Made by a program: the position numbers and the translations under genes
Notes under the pieces: model-generated
Seen by the model: the letters and a program-made list of their open reading frames with translations, nothing else
The model's database searches: none
What the model was told of the DNA's origin: nothing
Part shown: piece after piece, positions 167-8,984 of the stretch
Position numbering within the stretch: the first letter of the stretch is position 1
How the letters are laid out: each line of letters starts with the position of its first letter
Origin: an uncultured Atribacterota bacterium
GTDB lineage: Bacteria; Atribacterota; Atribacteria; Atribacterales; Atribacteraceae
Direction: 5' to 3'
NCBI GenBank assembly: GCA_964434845.1
Contig: CAYSWT010000006.1
Location: 1 to 38,792 of the forward strand
Length of the DNA: 38,792 nt

Positions 167-2218
167 TCAACAATTCTCACATTCTTTCTCGCCAGTTCCT
201 AAATAAAGAACCTGGGATTCCCGGCTATGATACCGAAAGACCGTAATCCCTTTGCAGCGAAGTGCATGGGCGAGGAGATAAACCTGAGCGACCGTTTCTG
301 GTGTTGCCTCTTCAGGAAGATTAATTGTTTTGGATACGGCATTATCAACATATTTTTGAAATGAAGACTGCATGCGTACCTGAAATTCTGGAGGAATCTC
401 CGACGCCGTCAAGAAAAGAGCATGAAGGAGGGGAGGTATTCCTGGTATATCCCGTAGTGATCCCTGTTCCCAAATCATTTTTCGCACATTTTCCGGAATG
501 TGATATGTTTTCAGACTCTCTTCTAACCAAGGATTGATTTCCAGCAATTCGGTATTTTCCAACACATACCGCCTGAAGACGAGAGCAAAATAGGGTTCAA
601 TGCCACTCGAACACCCGGCTATAAGACTGATGGAACCAGTGGGAGCGATCGAGGTTACAGTTGCATTCCGTAATCGGTTATTCTCTTGAGAATAGATGCT
701 CTGCGAATAATTGGGGAAAACCCCTCTTCTCTTGGCTAATTCCTGAGATGCGGCTCGTGCTTGTAAGCAAATGAATGACATCAGTTCTTCTGCCACGACT
801 AAAGCGTGATCGGAAAAATAGGATACTCCAATGGCGCTCAGTAGATCGGAAAATCCCATCACCCCCAACCCGATCTTTCGATTTCCCCGTACCATTTGTT
901 CGATAACTGGCAAAGGATAACGATTGATGTCGATCACGTTATCTAAAAAATGAACTGCAGCAAAAACCACGTGTTTTAACTTAGGATAATCGATTTTTCC
1001 GTCACGGACCATCCGCGCCAGATTTATCGATCCGAGATTGCATGATTCATAAGCAAGGAGCGGTACTTCACCACATGGGTTGGTTGCTTCAATTCGTCCT
1101 AAAGCCGGAGTGGGATTGGTCCGGTTTATTTCGTCCAAAAATATCAAACCTGGTTCCCCGGATTTCCAGGCGCTTTCGACAATCTGTTGGAAAAGTTCCC
1201 GAGCATTCATGCGTAAAACGTTTTTTCCAGTATGGGGATTCATTAAATCGATCATTTGTTCTTGACGAACTTTTTCCATTTCTTCGTCGGTAATTGCCAC
1301 TGATAAATTAAAATTCTCCAAAAGACTGGATTTTTCTTTCACTTGAATAAATTCACGAATATCAGGATGATTGAAACGCAGGATTCCCATGTTGGCACCC
1401 CGCCGACGCCCACCCTGCTTGACTACATCGGTCGTCACATCAAAAATCCGCATAAATGAAACCGGCCCTGACGCTCTGCCTCCGGTTGAAGCCACCCGGT
1501 CACCTTTGGGACGAAGCTGGGAAAAATTGAAACCGGTTCCACCTCCTGATTTATGAATAAAAGCCATATCTCGTAACGTGTTGAAGATATCCTCAATCGA
1601 ATCCCCAATAGGGAGAACGAAACACGCGGACAGCTGACCCAAAGGAGTACCGGCATTCATCAGAGTGGGCGAATTGGGGAGAAATTCGAGTTTGGTGAGC
1701 ATTTGGTAAAAAACTTCAGCACTCCGATCAGCCTCCTCATGGTAGAGGCGATCCGCTTCAGAGACCGTCCGGGCGACTCGCTCCATCATCTGTTTGGGAG
1801 TCTCCTGAACTTCTCCTTCCTCATTTTTGATAAGGTAGCGCTCTTTCAAAACCTTTATTGCATTGAGAGTGAGCTTTAAATCATCATGAACCCCAAACAC
1901 ATTCCACTTGGCTTCGCGTATCTCTCTCCGCTTTTCCCGATAAAGAATATAGGCCTTGGCCACTTCGGGAAGCGAATGAGACATAAGGGTCTTTTCGACT
2001 GCATCTTGAATTTCTTCGACAGTCGGTACCGGTCCGATACCATCAATGATGAGTCTGGAAATTACCTCTTGTGCCAGATCTTCAGCCCGACCCACTTGAT
2101 ATTGATCCGTCGCTCGAAGTGCTTGTTCGATGGCATGCACGATTTTCACAGTAGAAAAGGGCTCAACCTCGCCATTTCTTTTTTTCACCTGGGCAAAGAA
2201 AGTATCAGCCAATCTCAT
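167..2218 (-). CDS. nrdJ: Class II (adenosylcobalamin-dependent) ribonucleotide reductase
   Basis: 683-aa ORF. Active-site block ATNPCGEVPLLAYESCNLGSINL and the overall length and pattern match class II RNRs. Good RBS context and translational coupling to the upstream small ORF. Confidence 0.85.
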   Translation of the reverse strand: MRLADTFFAQVKKRNGEVEPFSTVKIVHAIEQALRATDQYQVGRAEDLAQEVISRLIIDGIGPVPTVEEIQDAVEKTLMSHSLPEVAKAYILYREKRREIREAKWNVFGVHDDLKLTLNAIKVLKERYLIKNEEGEVQETPKQMMERVARTVSEADRLYHEEADRSAEVFYQMLTKLEFLPNSPTLMNAGTPLGQLSACFVLPIGDSIEDIFNTLRDMAFIHKSGGGTGFNFSQLRPKGDRVASTGGRASGPVSFMRIFDVTTDVVKQGGRRRGANMGILRFNHPDIREFIQVKEKSSLLENFNLSVAITDEEMEKVRQEQMIDLMNPHTGKNVLRMNARELFQQIVESAWKSGEPGLIFLDEINRTNPTPALGRIEATNPCGEVPLLAYESCNLGSINLARMVRDGKIDYPKLKHVVFAAVHFLDNVIDINRYPLPVIEQMVRGNRKIGLGVMGFSDLLSAIGVSYFSDHALVVAEELMSFICLQARAASQELAKRRGVFPNYSQSIYSQENNRLRNATVTSIAPTGSISLIAGCSSGIEPYFALVFRRYVLENTELLEINPWLEESLKTYHIPENVRKMIWEQGSLRDIPGIPPLLHALFLTASEIPPEFQVRMQSSFQKYVDNAVSKTINLPEEATPETVAQVYLLAHALRCKGITVFRYHSRESQVLYLGTGEKECENC

Positions 2219-2343
2219 ACCTCCTTTTCATCTTCAGCCTCCTTCTTCACAAAGCTCCCTTTGGCTCCACAGCTCGGGCATTTCTGAGGTTTACACCGAC
2301 TTTCTTTTTCTGAACCGCACGCTTCACACTTCCAAATTGTCAT
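2215..2343 (-). CDS. 42-aa zinc-ribbon protein (CxxC-x7-C-x4-CxxC), translationally coupled to nrdJ
   Basis: ATG at complement 2343 is preceded by AAGGTGGG. Sequence is MTIWKCEACGSEKESRCKPQKCPSCGAKGSFVKKEAEDEKEV. The stop TGA overlaps the nrdJ ATG (ATGA). Absent from the supplied ORF track because it is below the length cut-off. Confidence 0.6.
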   Translation of the reverse strand: MTIWKCEACGSEKESRCKPQKCPSCGAKGSFVKKEAEDEKEV

Positions 2344-2385
2344 GGGCTATTCCCACCTTTCGCCGACATCCTGGCCGATTTGATA

Positions 2386-3048
2386 TTAATTATTCATAAA
2401 AAAGTTTTTATCGATCCAGCATTCTAAATCATCCCAGGTTGAAAAAATAAAATCGGGCGCATCATCGAGGAATACATCCTGATGAATTGAATCCCATTTA
2501 ACGAGGGCGCCCTGAACTCCAGCACGATGAGCTGATTGAATATCTAATGGAGAATCACCAAAATAAATCACTTCTTCGGGTTTAATCGAAAACAAGTCCA
2601 AAATCTTTTGAACTCCATCTGGAAACGGCTTGGGACGTGGAATCTCATCACCACAGACAATGGCATCAAATAAATCGATAACTTTCAACTTTTTTATGGT
2701 AATCTCAGCACTTCTTCGACCTTTGGAGGTAAACAGGGCTTGTTTTATTCCTTTTAACCGGAGAGTGCGTATACAATCAAATACTCTGGGAAATGTTTTG
2801 ACCAAAAGGTCATGATTGTCCTGATAATAAGTATAAAAATCATGTAAAGCCTGGGCTTTTCTTTCAGGACCGACAATTTTTTCAATCACATCGCCTTCAG
2901 GAGGCCCATACAAACGAACGATCTCCGCCGGGGTCATTTTCAACCCAGTATACTTTTCCGAAACCATATTAAAAGCATTCCAGAGGAGTTTCGAACTCCC
3001 GATCAGTGTATTATCCAAATCCCAAATCATAAGCTTAAACATGGCCAC
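2386..3048 (-). CDS. HAD-superfamily phosphatase/hydrolase
   Basis: N-terminal DxD motif (LMIWDLDNTLIGSS). HAD motif III KP.PD, and C-terminal GDS..D motif IV (YFGDSPLDIQSA). Confidence 0.8.
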   Translation of the reverse strand: MAMFKLMIWDLDNTLIGSSKLLWNAFNMVSEKYTGLKMTPAEIVRLYGPPEGDVIEKIVGPERKAQALHDFYTYYQDNHDLLVKTFPRVFDCIRTLRLKGIKQALFTSKGRRSAEITIKKLKVIDLFDAIVCGDEIPRPKPFPDGVQKILDLFSIKPEEVIYFGDSPLDIQSAHRAGVQGALVKWDSIHQDVFLDDAPDFIFSTWDDLECWIDKNFFMNN

Positions 3049-4093
3049 CGGTTTCCTTTTCGATTTCTCTCAGATTTCCGATCACAGTTTCCATATTCGC
3101 ATCAGTCCCCATCGATATTCGAAGAGAATCGGGCCATTCGGAAAAATATCGGACTAAAATCTTTCTTTGCTTGAGTTGAAGATACACTCGTTCTAAATTT
3201 TTACCCGGTCGTTTCACCATAACAAAGTTGGCTTCTGAGGGAAGAACCACATAGCCCAGCTCCAACATCGCCTCCGAAAATACGCTTCGAGTATGTTTGA
3301 TCTTCTCTGCGTTCTGCTTCATATGTTGGATATCCTGCAGAGCTGCCCAGGCGGCTTTTTGGGAAAACCAGCTGACGTTATAGGAATCCTTTAATTTTAA
3401 AAAACCATCAACCAGATTGGGATGAGCGAAAAGAACACCAATGCGCATACCCGCCAGAGAAAAAGACTTGGAGAGGGTTCGCAATATGATGAGTTGGTCA
3501 AATTGACCAAGAAGCGGAAGCGCGTTTTCCCGGGCAAAGTCAACATAGGCTTCATCCACCACCACTGGGCACGATGAAGACTTTAAAAGCTTCTCGATGT
3601 GGCTGGAAGGTAAAAAAGTTCCAGTAGGTGAATTTGGGTTACAAATCACTTTCATACACGCTGATTTAGTAAATATGCTTTCCGGGAGAGTGTAGTCAGG
3701 ATTAAACGGAATTTCGTGATAATCAGCTTCCTGAAAAAGAGCGAGGGTTCGATATAAAGTGTAGGTGGGAAAAGGATAAACAACCCGATCGTTCTTCCCC
3801 AAAAAAGCCCGAAAAACGATATTCAGAAGTTCATCGGAACCGTTTCCGATTAAAATCCAATCGGGAGGATACCCATAAACCTCAGATACTTTTTCTCTCA
3901 GTTCATCACAGAGTGGTGGGGGATAGAGCCCCAAATAACGTGGATTAAGACTTTGTTTCAAAGATTCTATCACCAACGGTGAAGGAGGATAGGGATTTTC
4001 ATTGGTATTCAGTTTAATAAATTCACCGTCATGAGGTTGCTCACCCGGAACATACCCTTTCATCGTTTCCAGGTGAGGACGAAAATAGCTCAT
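3035..4093 (-). CDS. hisC: Histidinol-phosphate aminotransferase family (class II PLP aminotransferase; HisC-like, possibly a CobD-like paralog)
   Basis: NPNSPTG motif. PLP-lysine block LSKSFSLAGMRIGV. 352 aa is a typical size. Confidence 0.7.
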   Translation of the reverse strand: MSYFRPHLETMKGYVPGEQPHDGEFIKLNTNENPYPPSPLVIESLKQSLNPRYLGLYPPPLCDELREKVSEVYGYPPDWILIGNGSDELLNIVFRAFLGKNDRVVYPFPTYTLYRTLALFQEADYHEIPFNPDYTLPESIFTKSACMKVICNPNSPTGTFLPSSHIEKLLKSSSCPVVVDEAYVDFARENALPLLGQFDQLIILRTLSKSFSLAGMRIGVLFAHPNLVDGFLKLKDSYNVSWFSQKAAWAALQDIQHMKQNAEKIKHTRSVFSEAMLELGYVVLPSEANFVMVKRPGKNLERVYLQLKQRKILVRYFSEWPDSLRISMGTDANMETVIGNLREIEKETGGHV

Positions 4094-4662
4094 CTCGGAC
4101 CTCCTTTGCCCATGTGCTTTAATATTTGAGTACTCCTCCCACTCGTGTCATGCAAAGTATACACTTCCAATAAATTCCGATAATCACCTCGAAAGTCAAG
4201 ACCATAACCAACAACATATATATCGGGAATTTCAAAGCAGGAATAATGCACTGGTACTTCGATAAATCGCCGGTCAGGACAATCTAAAAAAGTACAGGCA
4301 ACGATGCTGGCGGGGAATCGCTTTTCCATGATGTGCATTAAAAAATTCAAAGTCATGCCGGTATCGATAATATCTTCAACGATGATGACATCTCGATCAG
4401 CGACTTCTTCAGTAATGTCTTTTTCGATTTCAACCTTTTTAAAACCGGTTTTAAAGCTCGAGATCGACATAAAATCAAGATCAAATGGAATAGCGAGAGA
4501 CCGGGTCAGATCAACCGTAAAAAAAATCGCCCCTCTTAAAATGGAGATGATCAGCGGTCTTTTCCCCACATAATCTTGACTGATCGCTGTCGAAATCTGT
4601 TTGACACGGGTTTCTATTTCCACTCTTGTAAATACACATTCTCCCAGCTTGGATTCAATCAT
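4090..4662 (-). CDS. hpt: Hypoxanthine-guanine phosphoribosyltransferase
   Basis: PRPP-binding motif VIIVEDIIDTGMTL. GYGLDF block. 190 aa. Confidence 0.85.
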   Translation of the reverse strand: MIESKLGECVFTRVEIETRVKQISTAISQDYVGKRPLIISILRGAIFFTVDLTRSLAIPFDLDFMSISSFKTGFKKVEIEKDITEEVADRDVIIVEDIIDTGMTLNFLMHIMEKRFPASIVACTFLDCPDRRFIEVPVHYSCFEIPDIYVVGYGLDFRGDYRNLLEVYTLHDTSGRSTQILKHMGKGGPR

Positions 4663-5594
4663 TGATTATCCTCCACTCCAAACTTGCGTAAAAGATGCAT
4701 ATAATCTCGAGAATATATTACCTTGATTTTTATCTGAGGGTAAAGTTCCCGAAGTCTTCTCACTTTTCGGTTTTTTTTCCTGACTAATTTTTGTCTCTGG
4801 GTGGTGAGTTCGATAAACAGATCAAAATCGGGAAGATAGAAATCTGGGGAGAAGGCTTCAATAACATTCCCCTCATTATCCCATTCCAAAGGAAAAGTGC
4901 GGGGCTCATAAAGCCATTTTATACGGTAAAAATCAAGAATGCGAGCAAATTCTTCCTCAGAAGGATGAACAAAATCCACCCGGTTCCCTCCAAAATCAAG
5001 ATTGGGAAAAAGTGGTTGTTGTTCTCCCTTTCCGAGCGATGGCACTCCAATATTTGCCATTGCTTCCAGAATAATGTGACAAGCCCGATCAACCGAATAA
5101 TAAGCGGTATTCAAAACCAGGTTGTACATCATGGGGTTTTTCCAATCAGCTCCTAATGTTTCTAACAGGAACTTTTCCCTTTTCCGATCCAGTTCGGATA
5201 ATATATGAGAAGCCGTCACTTCATCCTGATGGTATTTTTCCATGATTCTTTTCAACCGGACTTCCGGCGAAGAGACGATTAACAAGTGAAAAGTACGGAC
5301 ATCATTTTGAAAGATGGTTTGGCCACCCCGACCAAGAAAGATGATAGGTCGCTTTTTTATCTGTTTGTAAACGATCTCACGAACCGCTTTCGCCCAGATG
5401 AGAAATTTAACTCGATCAATATTTTCATCCAGATCGTCATGCCCTGATTCATGGAGGAATTGTGCTAATTGGTCACGATCAATGAGTTGATAATTTAAAA
5501 GTTGAGAGAGTTTTTCCGCAATCTCATCACCGAGGCTTTCGGTTTCGCGGGAAAGAGTAATAATTGATACCTTTTCCACTGAACGCTCCACCAA
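4659..5594 (-). CDS. Cytidylate-kinase-like family protein (AAA/NMP-kinase fold) with an uncharacterised ~110-aa C-terminal extension
   Basis: N-terminal VSIITLSRETESLGDEIAEKLSQLLNYQLIDRD resembles the cytidylate kinase-like family. The C-terminal part (…FSPDFYLPDFDLFIELTTQRQK…) is unrecognised. Confidence 0.5.
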   Translation of the reverse strand: MVERSVEKVSIITLSRETESLGDEIAEKLSQLLNYQLIDRDQLAQFLHESGHDDLDENIDRVKFLIWAKAVREIVYKQIKKRPIIFLGRGGQTIFQNDVRTFHLLIVSSPEVRLKRIMEKYHQDEVTASHILSELDRKREKFLLETLGADWKNPMMYNLVLNTAYYSVDRACHIILEAMANIGVPSLGKGEQQPLFPNLDFGGNRVDFVHPSEEEFARILDFYRIKWLYEPRTFPLEWDNEGNVIEAFSPDFYLPDFDLFIELTTQRQKLVRKKNRKVRRLRELYPQIKIKVIYSRDYMHLLRKFGVEDNQ

Positions 5595-5680: not shown

Positions 5681-6244
5681 ATGAGAAAAATGAATTGGGA
5701 ATTCGAGCTTATGATTCTTCTGGTCATCATTGTAGGAACGATGATTCTCGGCACCGCTTCTCCAATAGCAGCCTCGGCTTGGCGAGATGCTCCTTCCTTT
5801 TATTTATACGACCTCTCCGGACAGGAAATACAATTTACCGTTTCCGATAATATGGTGGTTCTTTTATTCATGTCTCCCGATTGTTTTGCCTGTGATCGGG
5901 AATTGTTTATGGCGAATATCCTTCAAAAAAATCTCTCTTTCCAGCTCATACCGGTTTGTATTGGGTGTAACTGGAAAGAGGTGAAACGTATCCAAGAATC
6001 ACTCAATCTGGAGCTCCCAATCTATATGGGAAAAGTGAATCTCAAGGCGAGCTGGGGAATTTGGGAGTTCCCGACTGCCTTTTTAGTTGATAAAAATATG
6101 AAAATCCTTGAAAAATGGCAAGGGAAAATTGCCGTTCAGTCTTTAGAGAAACAGTTAGCCAACAGAGAAATGGTTCAATCGAAAAGAAAAAAAGCGGATG
6201 GGGATTCATCCCCATCCGCTTGCAGCGATGTTGTGTGTTATTAG
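5681..6244 (+). CDS. Membrane-anchored thioredoxin-fold thiol:disulfide oxidoreductase (TlpA/ResA-like)
   Basis: N-terminal TM helix. CFAC (CxxC) active-site motif in a redoxin-like context. Confidence 0.6.
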   Translation: MRKMNWEFELMILLVIIVGTMILGTASPIAASAWRDAPSFYLYDLSGQEIQFTVSDNMVVLLFMSPDCFACDRELFMANILQKNLSFQLIPVCIGCNWKEVKRIQESLNLELPIYMGKVNLKASWGIWEFPTAFLVDKNMKILEKWQGKIAVQSLEKQLANREMVQSKRKKADGDSSPSACSDVVCY

Positions 6245-7018: not shown

Positions 7019-7780
7019 GTGGTTTGTATATCAATTTTTCAACAAACCCTACAGGACCTTTGGGACCGAAAAATTAATCCGGAGGAAGCCGAAAAACGAC
7101 TCCGACAATTTCCCTATGAAGATATCGGTTTCGCCAAAATCGATCACCATCGTGCCCTCCGCAAGGGTTTCCCTGAAGTTGTTTTTTGTCAAGGAAAAAC
7201 CAATGAACAAATCGTAGATATCCTTAAGAAAATCAGCCGGGAGCATCCGAATTGCCTCGCCACGCGGGTTCAACCGGATACCTATGACTCGGTAAAAAAA
7301 GAATTTCCCGACATCCGTTTTCATCCCAATGCCCGCCTTCTGGTTCTGGAAAGAGAGCCGGTTTCAAAAAAAGGGTCAGTTGCCATCGTCAGCGCCGGTA
7401 CTGCTGATCTTCCGGTCGCCGAAGAGGCTGCTATCACAGCTGATGTTGCCGGGAGTACGGTGAGCAGAATCTACGACGTGGGAATTGCCGGTCTCCACCG
7501 ACTTATCTCGCATTTGAACCAACTCTGGCAAGCCAACGTCATTGTGGCAGTGGCTGGTATGGAAGGAGCTCTTCCCGGCGTTATTTCGGGCATGGTTGGA
7601 CGACCGGTGATCGCCGTCCCAACCAGCATCGGGTATGGTGCCCATTTTCAAGGGTTATCAGCACTCCTAACCATGTTGAATACCTGTTCTCCGGGTATAG
7701 GAGTAGTGAATATTGATAACGGCTTTGGCGCCGGATATCTTGCCCACCTTATCAATCGTTTAGCTGAAGGGGATAAATAA
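7019..7780 (+). CDS. larB: Nickel-pincer cofactor biosynthesis protein LarB (PurE-like P2CMN synthase)
   Basis: GFAKIDHHRALRKGFPEVVFCQGKT N-domain. PurE-like C-domain VAIVSAGTADLPVAEEA…VIVAVAGMEGALPGV…PVIAVPTSIGYG. Start (GTG 7019) is uncertain because the RBS overlaps it. Confidence 0.8.
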   Translation: MVCISIFQQTLQDLWDRKINPEEAEKRLRQFPYEDIGFAKIDHHRALRKGFPEVVFCQGKTNEQIVDILKKISREHPNCLATRVQPDTYDSVKKEFPDIRFHPNARLLVLEREPVSKKGSVAIVSAGTADLPVAEEAAITADVAGSTVSRIYDVGIAGLHRLISHLNQLWQANVIVAVAGMEGALPGVISGMVGRPVIAVPTSIGYGAHFQGLSALLTMLNTCSPGIGVVNIDNGFGAGYLAHLINRLAEGDK

Positions 7781-7784
7781 AACC

Positions 7785-8984
7785 ATGATTCTCTATTGTG
7801 ACTGCTTTTCTGGAATCAGTGGGGACATGTTTCTTGGGGGTTTGATTGATTTAGGGTTACCGGTGGATTATTTGAAATCGGAAATCGCCAAAATGAAAAT
7901 TCCTTTTCAGTTCCATGCCATTACGACCAAAAAGGGATCGATTCAAGCGGTTCAGATTGAAATAGCCGACCCGGAAGAAAGTGAAAGCCATCATGTTGAT
8001 CATCATCACCGCCCCGTAGCTGAGCTGATACGGATTATTCAGGAGAGTAAGCTCTCTCATTCAATAAGGGAAAAGTCAACCACCATCCTCTGGAAAATTG
8101 CACAGGCAGAAGGGAAAATTCACGGACAAAACCCGGAGAATGTCTATCTCCATGAGGTCGGAGGAGTTGATACTTTGATTGATATCACCGGCGTTCTCAT
8201 CGGTGTTGATTATTTGGCAATCAATAAAATCATGGCCTCAATTATCCCCACCGGGTATGGTTTCATCTCCACCAGTCATGGAACCCTCCCCATTCCCGCA
8301 CCGGCAACTGCGGAACTCCTCAAAGGGATTCCGGTGACAGCTGGTCATGTTCCAGGAGAACTAACGACTCCAACCGGTGCTGCCCTCATCGGTACCATGG
8401 CCGAGCAATTTGGTTCTATTCCCCCAATGATCATTGAACGCATCGGCTATGGTGCCGGCCATCGCGACTATGAATCACCAAATGTATTGCGTCTCTTATT
8501 AGGGCGAGATCTCCCCACCTCTCAGCACGAAGAAAATATTCTGATCGAAACCAATATCGATGACATGAGTCCGCAAATCGTCGATTATGTCAGTGAAAAA
8601 CTCTTTGAGGCTGGAGCATTGGACGTTTATACCACGCCCATCTACATGAAAAAACAACGTCCAGCCTTCATGCTGTCTGTTATTGTCCCGCCCAGCCGCC
8701 TTCAGGAATTTAGAGATCTTCTTTTTAAAGAAACCACCACCCTCGGAATCCGAGAAATTTCATTCAAAAAAGTGTCTCTTCCCCGTGAAGATATGGAATT
8801 GGAAACTACTTGGGGAAAAACAAAGGTCAAAATATCTCGTTACCGTGATGGAATAAAACTAACGCCCGAATATGAAGAATGCAAAAGTATCGCCCGACAA
8901 TTTCACCTCCCACTGATTGAAGTTATCCATGCTGTTCGAAACGCAGCGGAAAATAAACTCCGTACCGGTGGAAGGTTCGAATGA
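7785..8984 (+). CDS. larC: Nickel insertion protein LarC (DUF111 family, CTP-dependent nickel chelatase)
   Basis: N-terminal MILYCDCFSGISGDMFLGGLIDLG (hallmark of the LarC/DUF111 family). His-rich patch ESESHHVDHHHRP. 399 aa. Confidence 0.8.
   Translation: MILYCDCFSGISGDMFLGGLIDLGLPVDYLKSEIAKMKIPFQFHAITTKKGSIQAVQIEIADPEESESHHVDHHHRPVAELIRIIQESKLSHSIREKSTTILWKIAQAEGKIHGQNPENVYLHEVGGVDTLIDITGVLIGVDYLAINKIMASIIPTGYGFISTSHGTLPIPAPATAELLKGIPVTAGHVPGELTTPTGAALIGTMAEQFGSIPPMIIERIGYGAGHRDYESPNVLRLLLGRDLPTSQHEENILIETNIDDMSPQIVDYVSEKLFEAGALDVYTTPIYMKKQRPAFMLSVIVPPSRLQEFRDLLFKETTTLGIREISFKKVSLPREDMELETTWGKTKVKISRYRDGIKLTPEYEECKSIARQFHLPLIEVIHAVRNAAENKLRTGGRFE

Follow-up and report, generated by a model that had tools for sequence, protein, structure and literature searches.

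An RCKP-type rubredoxin-like mini-gene directly upstream of nrdJ in Atribacterota, probably encoding a general redox module

In class Ib nrdHIEF operons, the genes for the catalytic proteins are immediately preceded by the gene for NrdH-redoxin, a small redox protein with a thioredoxin fold and a redox-active CxxC dithiol. Among the adenosylcobalamin-dependent class II ribonucleotide reductases (RNRs; NrdJ), the cysteine-rich module genetically linked to the enzyme is the cysteine-rich domain (CRD), of 150-220 aa with six invariant cysteines (CxxC-x9-CxxCxxC-x5-C), which is a feature of about 70% of the non-monomeric NrdJs but never of the monomeric NrdJm, and which is split off in Pseudomonas as a separate protein, NrdJb (Loderer et al. 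2017, PMC5704485). In Desulfovibrio vulgaris, the rubredoxin-like protein Rdl, encoded in the perR-rbr-rdl operon, is regarded as an intermediary electron donor (PMC545781). The subject of this analysis is a 42-aa open reading frame (ORF) located directly before nrdJ in a stretch of 38,792 nucleotides, here called the window, from an uncultured Atribacterota bacterium (contig CAYSWT010000006.1, assembly GCA_964434845.1). Its product belongs to a rubredoxin-like family, named for its R-C-K-P motif, whose members lie more often beside oxidative-stress genes than beside RNR genes, and the interpretation that we consider reasonably probable is that of a generic redox module of the mini-rubredoxin type, made together with NrdJ.

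The small ORF lies on the minus strand (2343..2215), with its ATG at 2343 and its TGA stop at 2217-2215, and its exact translation is MTIWKCEACGSEKESRCKPQKCPSCGAKGSFVKKEAEDEKEV, corresponding to a mass of about 4.7 kDa. A Shine-Dalgarno (SD) sequence, AAGGTGGG (2359-2352), stands 8 nt before the ATG, and an equivalent, AAAGGTGGAG, is kept in the orthologs, whose upstream alignment conserves little beyond this ribosome-binding site. The gap to the preceding gene, which encodes a phosphatase of the HAD family (PpaX/PGP-like by Pfam and NCBIfam; 2386..3048, minus), is only 42 nt, and for this reason the small ORF is likely to be co-transcribed with the upstream operon. The SD of nrdJ, AAGGAGG (2226-2220), falls within the closing K-E-V codons of the small ORF, as it is inside the tail codons of every ortholog. 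At the junction, ATGAGATTG (2218-2210), the TGA overlaps the first ATG (2218-2216) of the 683-aa NrdJ ORF as ATGA (2218-2215), and an in-frame TTG follows at 2212-2210. Taking into account that the nrdJ SD leaves a spacing of only 1 nt to the ATG but of 7 nt to the TTG, that all orthologs show the layout stop, 2 nt, TTG, and that the NrdJ N-termini align on the TTG, the true start of nrdJ is probably this TTG, 2 nt after the small-ORF stop, rather than the ATG at 2218. A first-pass annotation of the window had described a 42-aa ORF with a good ribosome-binding site ahead of nrdJ, its TGA overlapping the nrdJ ATG, and translational coupling between both genes. The ORF, its translation and its SD are confirmed on the minus strand; the ATGA overlap exists as described, but the TTG is the likelier start; and, whichever start holds, the stop/start layout bears out the coupling, which the sequence indicates to be tight.

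The small protein matches NCBIfam NF045720 (RCKP-type rubredoxin-like domain-containing protein) with 65.1 bits, where the curated cutoff is 45 (E=3.1e-18), its residues 1-34 covering all 34 positions (1-34) of the profile, and by this match it is assigned to an already-named family. Its five cysteines follow the pattern CxxC-x7-C-x4-CxxC, in which C6/C9 and C22/C25 are the knuckle cysteines (CxxC-x12-CxxC) and the fifth, C17, lies between C6xxC9 and C22xxC25 in the stretch S15-R16-C17-K18-P19. The knuckle cysteines, C17 and P19 are invariant in alignments A2 and A4, and K18 is invariant in A2 and almost invariant in A4; with this reservation for K18, the EKE-RCKP core is invariant together with the five cysteines in both alignments, and the pattern is visible in 78 of 80 metagenome loci. 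These 80 loci were listed by an alignment-based search and a metagenome scan; their ORFs measure 34-52 aa and share the consensus MAxWKCxxCGxEKEGRCKPxKCPxCxxxxxFxKK. A first word-indexed homolog search with the very short query had returned only two matches, and the use of the alignment as query helped. When 1.84 billion representatives were searched exhaustively with a profile, 196 cluster representatives of the family were found, and the motif is carried by 89 of the 157 family sequences examined (P0123-P0279; median length 50 aa). The window protein resembles the other members in R-C-K-P, in both CxxCG knuckles and in the typical stand-alone size (34-50 aa), and shows no structural difference from them; only its position directly before nrdJ is unusual. 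A literature search found no paper naming the RCKP-type family. Multi-repeat rubredoxin-like proteins lacking the RCKP motif were also present among the profile-search matches.

The AlphaFold2 (AF2) model, with a mean predicted local distance difference test score of 82.7, presents a three-stranded knuckle domain followed by a K/E-rich tail predicted to be disordered. It superposes on the C-terminal domains of rubrerythrin (1b71, 9fj2) with 0.8 Å over 31 residues and 32-35% identity, and on the rubredoxin domain of a ferredoxin:disulfide reductase (4tpu) with 1.0 Å; since the domain is tiny, the Foldseek E-values are weak, above 0.1. The closest PDB sequences are likewise rubredoxin and rubrerythrin, and the best Pfam match is PF21349 RUBY_RBDX, whose 23.8 bits fall below the gathering threshold of 26.5. 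No rubredoxin family was found among the Pfam matches at E<=1, no thioredoxin-fold family among the Pfam and NCBIfam matches, and no solved structure of any NF045720 member in a PDB search. Compared with the Fe(Cys)4 domain of rubrerythrin (PF21349; 1b71, 1ryt, 9fj2), the small protein has the same CxxC-x12-CxxC spacing, and its predicted fold superposes on that domain at 32-39% identity, whereas the rubrerythrin domain is fused to a diiron four-helix bundle and the window protein is free-standing, and the loop that reads x-x-P-P in rubrerythrin reads R-C-K-P, with an extra cysteine, in the latter. In canonical rubredoxins, of about 45-54 aa, the CxxCG knuckles are about 29 residues apart instead of 12, and only the N-terminal knuckle of PDB rubredoxins aligns with the window protein. 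Sequence and model together therefore predict a two-knuckle CxxC-x12-CxxC metal site with an additional conserved cysteine between an arginine and a lysine in the loop. The zinc ribbon of the first-pass annotation is in this sense a genuine Cys4-knuckle mini-protein, but zinc and iron are not distinguished by sequence or fold.

The small ORF is a real protein-coding gene under purifying selection. In the closest relatives, with the same synteny and NrdJs 72-74% identical, an ORF of 36-44 codons occupies the same place and keeps all five cysteines; the differences between orthologs are about three-fold commoner at third codon positions, and the ratio of nonsynonymous to synonymous substitutions (dN/dS) is 0.03-0.18 where measurable (dN 0.06-0.25), with synonymous sites saturated. 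Because of this third-position bias and these dN/dS values, together with the NCBIfam match (E=3e-18), the ORF is far beyond chance. Synonymous-site variation, which the earlier annotation had named as the test of coding potential, is thus in agreement with a coding sequence (dN/dS <=0.18, saturated synonymous sites). That the ORF was unannotated held only for the ORF track then used: the Joint Genome Institute (JGI) calls an identical 42-aa product on six metagenome contigs, on each of which the small ORF follows the HAD gene and precedes nrdJ, and NCBI names a family member.

Public records of this small gene are uneven. A wrong-frame ORF of 37-40 aa has been called publicly in three loci (L088:3895-4008, L089:3886-4008 and L090:2823-2945), three others (L091-L093) have no public call for the gene, and one NrdJ entry (P0005) carries a spurious N-terminal extension of 23 residues that reads across the small-gene region. 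Gene callers often miss the small gene or place it in the wrong frame, and the present analysis supplies its correct annotation, together with a corrected likely start codon for nrdJ.

The association of the family with nrdJ is restricted to two lineages. It is only where the locus is orthologous to that of the window (5 distinct loci; NrdJ 72-74% identical, order HAD-RCKP-nrdJ) that nrdJ lies directly downstream of the RCKP gene. In other Atribacterota, with NrdJs 61-68% identical and including a complete Ca. Caldatribacterium genome, the same operon is present with the HAD stop 2-34 nt before the nrdJ start, and a profile search found no RCKP ORF in it. Since these Atribacterota keep the operon with the HAD gene abutting nrdJ and without the small ORF, the small gene appears, on this comparison of gene orders, to be a lineage-specific insertion into a phylum-wide operon, and it would have taken over the translational coupling to nrdJ that the HAD gene provides in the sister lineages. 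The locus is thus a clean illustration of how such an operon can receive a small gene and still keep its translational coupling. A six-frame scan of 80 diverse GTDB nrdJ loci detected no RCKP ORF within 4 kb; among the loci listed, one was from Atribacteria, and closer relatives were compared individually. The synteny comparison suggested in the first-pass annotation thus gives a divided answer: the ORF is kept before nrdJ in the nearest relatives, but it is absent in the sister Atribacterota and in the 80 diverse loci.

In the second lineage, also of 5 distinct loci, the order is RCKP, a perR-like gene and nrdJ, with the RCKP gene within about 0.8 kb of nrdJ. Four of these loci (L110, L136, L142 and L143) contain a 15-bp palindrome, TAGTAATnATTAyTA, between a TTGACA/TATACT promoter and the RCKP ribosome-binding site, about 30-45 nt upstream of the RCKP start (~4001; 1238 in L142), which is a candidate PerR/Fur-type operator of the RCKP-perR-like operon. 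The perR-like gene ends in a hairpin terminator and nrdJ follows with NrdR-box-like sites of its own. Together with the palindrome, these features weaken the link between RCKP and nrdJ, which are there separate transcription units. The second-lineage NrdJ has 790 aa and carries a full CRD, ending ACPECG-x8-CxxCxxCGYSKCG, so that the RCKP protein fills no missing domain in it.

In the locus of the closest relative (L096:4001-4470), synteny is complete and the small ORF is intact, but of nrdJ only two fragments remain (aa 12-85 and 623-683), with Cys-to-Gly changes, a stop codon and a frameshift. This nrdJ is either a pseudogene or the product of an assembly artefact; as its fragments have diverged no further than intact orthologs have, a real deletion would be recent, and the case is weak evidence.

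Among 65 distinct loci, the RCKP family keeps other company. A rubrerythrin gene is directly adjacent in 12 of them, a Fur-family gene is nearby in 7 (directly adjacent in 6), and in 3 there are genes for superoxide reductase and flavodiiron proteins. Of the models compared, those of PerR give the Fur-family neighbours their best scores, below the curated cutoffs, and Zur the lowest. The family is more often a neighbour of rubrerythrin, PerR or superoxide reductase genes than of RNR genes. In one locus (L183), a FUR-RCKP-rubrerythrin-desulfoferrodoxin operon is found; this locus and the RCKP-perR loci resemble the perR-rbr-rdl operon of D. vulgaris in operon type, a likeness of gene order, whereas the window copy adjoins none of those genes. 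Other contexts are unrelated and include phosphate acyltransferase, M50 peptidase and TPR genes. The family is widespread in anaerobes with its fifth cysteine conserved, and because it turns up repeatedly in operons with PerR, rubrerythrin and superoxide reductase, it is an inexpensive and tractable target for the study of O2 defence in strict anaerobes.

Some individual loci of the family deserve mention. A 155-aa protein (P0240) has a Fur-like N-terminal part fused to a C-terminal RCKP domain; it is either a genuine fusion or the result of a missed stop codon, and may link the family to PerR/Fur. In six loci (L103, L107, L122, L126, L159 and L164), the RCKP ORF has 49 aa and an extra cysteine-rich tail (…GCGCSCSSK), and in this sub-group the next gene always encodes a ferritin-like or rubrerythrin domain. 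In another two (L102:4001-5028 and L150:6-1036), the RCKP ORF overlaps the start of a phosphate acetyl/butyryl-transferase gene by 4 nt, by which arrangement it appears to be another mini-gene translationally coupled to an unrelated enzyme.

In the interpretation of a generic mini-rubredoxin-type module co-expressed with NrdJ, the small protein would bind one metal ion and, in the case of iron, would act as a one-electron carrier; sequence and model would also admit zinc. By analogy with its relatives, it may be a small general redox module of the kind that anaerobes place, together with rubrerythrin, superoxide reductase and flavodiiron proteins, in PerR-controlled operons for defence against O2 and peroxide. 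In the lineage of the window, its gene would have been inserted into a nucleotide-metabolism operon, nrdJ translation now being coupled to RCKP as it is to the HAD gene in the sister lineages, and the mini-rubredoxin and the oxygen-insensitive B12 reductase would therefore be made together. The linkage would then reflect co-expression, and no missing CRD of NrdJ would be supplied. If it reflects only that, its value is modest: what is new is an RCKP member in an unusual, lineage-specific position, in a known family in which membership gives a name and not a function.

Several observations weigh against this interpretation. RCKP is linked to nrdJ in 10 of the 65 distinct loci, in two lineages, and in the window lineage the stop/start adjacency to nrdJ has been kept despite saturated synonymous sites, as functional partners would be expected to show. 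For many NrdJs no physiological reductant has been identified (PMC5704485), which leaves a place for a more specific role. Rubrerythrin, Fur, superoxide reductase and flavodiiron genes are all missing from the 38.8-kb window, and no convincing PerR or NrdR operator is seen there upstream of the small ORF. No NrdR box was found before the small ORF and its operon with up to 3-4 mismatches, the same search finding such boxes before nrdJ in the RCKP-perR-nrdJ loci, which served as positive control; the sole candidate PerR/Fur box (2384-2398) has 3 mismatches, and four such sites occur in the window against 1.5 expected, which is not significant.

It has to be considered whether the small protein serves NrdJ itself. 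The first-pass annotation had compared the window NrdJ, with its single CENC pair, to monomeric class II RNRs, which it said often need a C-terminal Cys-rich tail or zinc ribbon, and had supposed that a separate zinc-ribbon partner could supply this function or act as a regulatory or assembly factor. The relation is the reverse, the CRD being confined to non-monomeric NrdJs (PMC5704485). Moreover, the window enzyme (nrdJ, 167..2218, minus; adenosylcobalamin-dependent, with ATP cone, all-alpha domain and barrel in Pfam and NCBIfam) is itself assigned to the non-monomeric type, because it has the ATP cone and scores 685 bits on TIGR02504 NrdJ_Z against only 90 bits on the monomeric RTPR model. 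It ends in …GEKECENC, with the pair C680/C683 and without a CRD, so that the single CENC pair was correctly read; this bare CxxC type of C-terminus, however, occurs with or without the RCKP insertion and is the normal state for the whole NrdJ clade. That the small protein is a trans-encoded substitute for the CRD, as NrdJb is in the split Pseudomonas enzyme, is very improbable, even though the window NrdJ has no CRD, a separately encoded CRD exists in nature, and the small protein and the CRD are alike in being cysteine-rich metal-knuckle modules with a genetic link to a class II RNR. The four knuckle cysteines share the CxxC-x12-CxxC spacing of the CRD end, and hhalign, comparing the small protein with this end, gives a probability of 74.7% (75% in round terms) over 27 columns, but only these cysteines and the glycines match, the extra cysteine being offset by two positions and the sixth being absent. 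The CRD has 150-220 aa and six cysteines, against 42 aa and five in a product encoded upstream of nrdJ; throughout the CRD-less clade a bare CxxC tail suffices, mostly with no RCKP gene nearby; RCKP is also found near the CRD-containing NrdJ of the second lineage; and the family lies mostly away from RNR loci, in the main beside oxidative-stress genes. Size, cysteine count and distribution thus all disagree with the supply of a missing tail. The six-Cys CRD end was confirmed in 38 of the 80 nrdJ loci, and the hhalign profile-profile comparison, made with these 38 ends, gave only generic knuckle similarity, the candidate of a CRD surrogate being largely refuted by distribution.

A dedicated redox partner of NrdJ, comparable to NrdH but for class II, is unlikely as well, and none of the findings calls for it. 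Such a protein would carry electrons from ferredoxin or an NROR-type reductase to C680/C683, perhaps through the exposed thiol of C17, or would re-reduce cob(II)alamin, and NrdH would then be its closest functional analogy, although in place of a thioredoxin fold the window protein has a metal-knuckle domain of about 35 residues. The tight coupling to nrdJ kept in the lineage, the second and independent nrdJ neighbourhood, the conserved fifth cysteine with its basic flanks, and the rubredoxin domain that forms part of a known ferredoxin:disulfide reductase (4tpu) would all suit this role, as would the unidentified reductant mentioned above and the failure of thioredoxins and glutaredoxins in vitro with a CRD-type enzyme (PMC5704485). 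Against it, the gene is absent at this locus from sister Atribacterota, whose operon and NrdJ tail are the same, the 80 diverse nrdJ loci are equally devoid of RCKP, most family members stand beside rubrerythrin, PerR or unrelated genes, and the second-lineage nrdJ follows a terminator with its own NrdR-box-like sites; no fusion with NrdJ is seen among the best 150 of the 196 family representatives, and the intact ORF beside the deleted nrdJ of the closest relative adds a weak point. The bolder form of the partner reading, in which the class II RNR of the window lineage, and perhaps NrdJs more widely, would have the RCKP protein as dedicated physiological electron donor, low-potential electrons of the ferredoxin type being passed on to re-reduce the C-terminal cysteines or the cobalamin with the R-C-K-P cysteine as contact thiol, is distinctly unlikely; if true, it would propose a reductant for those class II RNRs that thioredoxins and glutaredoxins do not serve. 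Quite unlikely, too, is a structural, non-redox zinc ribbon, acting as metal buffer or chaperone, as nucleic-acid or ribosome binder, or simply through its translation, which would set nrdJ expression. Sequence and fold fit zinc and iron alike, many Foldseek and PDB matches are zinc ribbons (MCM, Rpo12, ribosomal proteins), the Fur-family neighbours could relate to metal homeostasis, and the nrdJ SD lies inside the small ORF. Nevertheless, conservation at the protein level across phyla far exceeds the need of a coupling device, a function that the HAD gene already provides in sister lineages; the best specific matches are the iron proteins rubrerythrin and rubredoxin; and the Fur-family neighbours score highest against PerR and lowest against Zur models. 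The generic redox module co-expressed with NrdJ is the interpretation retained here.

Upstream of the HAD gene, the minus-strand operon continues, by Pfam and NCBIfam assignments, with hisC (4093..3035), a phosphoribosyltransferase gene (4662..4090) and a cytidylate-kinase-like gene (5594..4659). Adjacent genes in this part (3035..5594) overlap at their ends, and the gene order is the same across Atribacterota. As a whole, the operon (167-5594, minus, in the window; also L176-L179 and L024) oddly mixes a histidine-pathway aminotransferase with nucleotide-metabolism genes. Promoter and terminator counts in the window were not above those of shuffled controls, and a search of the whole window with Rfam at gathering thresholds gave no matches.

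Divergently from the operon, at 5681-6244 on the plus strand, a 187-aa protein with a thioredoxin fold (AhpC/TSA-like), an N-terminal hydrophobic segment and a CFAC motif is encoded; judging from these features, it looks like a membrane-anchored thiol:disulfide oxidoreductase of the TlpA/ResA type, and not like a cytoplasmic reductant of RNR. Farther along the same strand (7019-8984), a nickel-insertion gene of the LarC type comes after an AIR-carboxylase-like gene (253 aa), and the two together resemble the biosynthesis pair for the nickel-pincer cofactor of lactate racemase.

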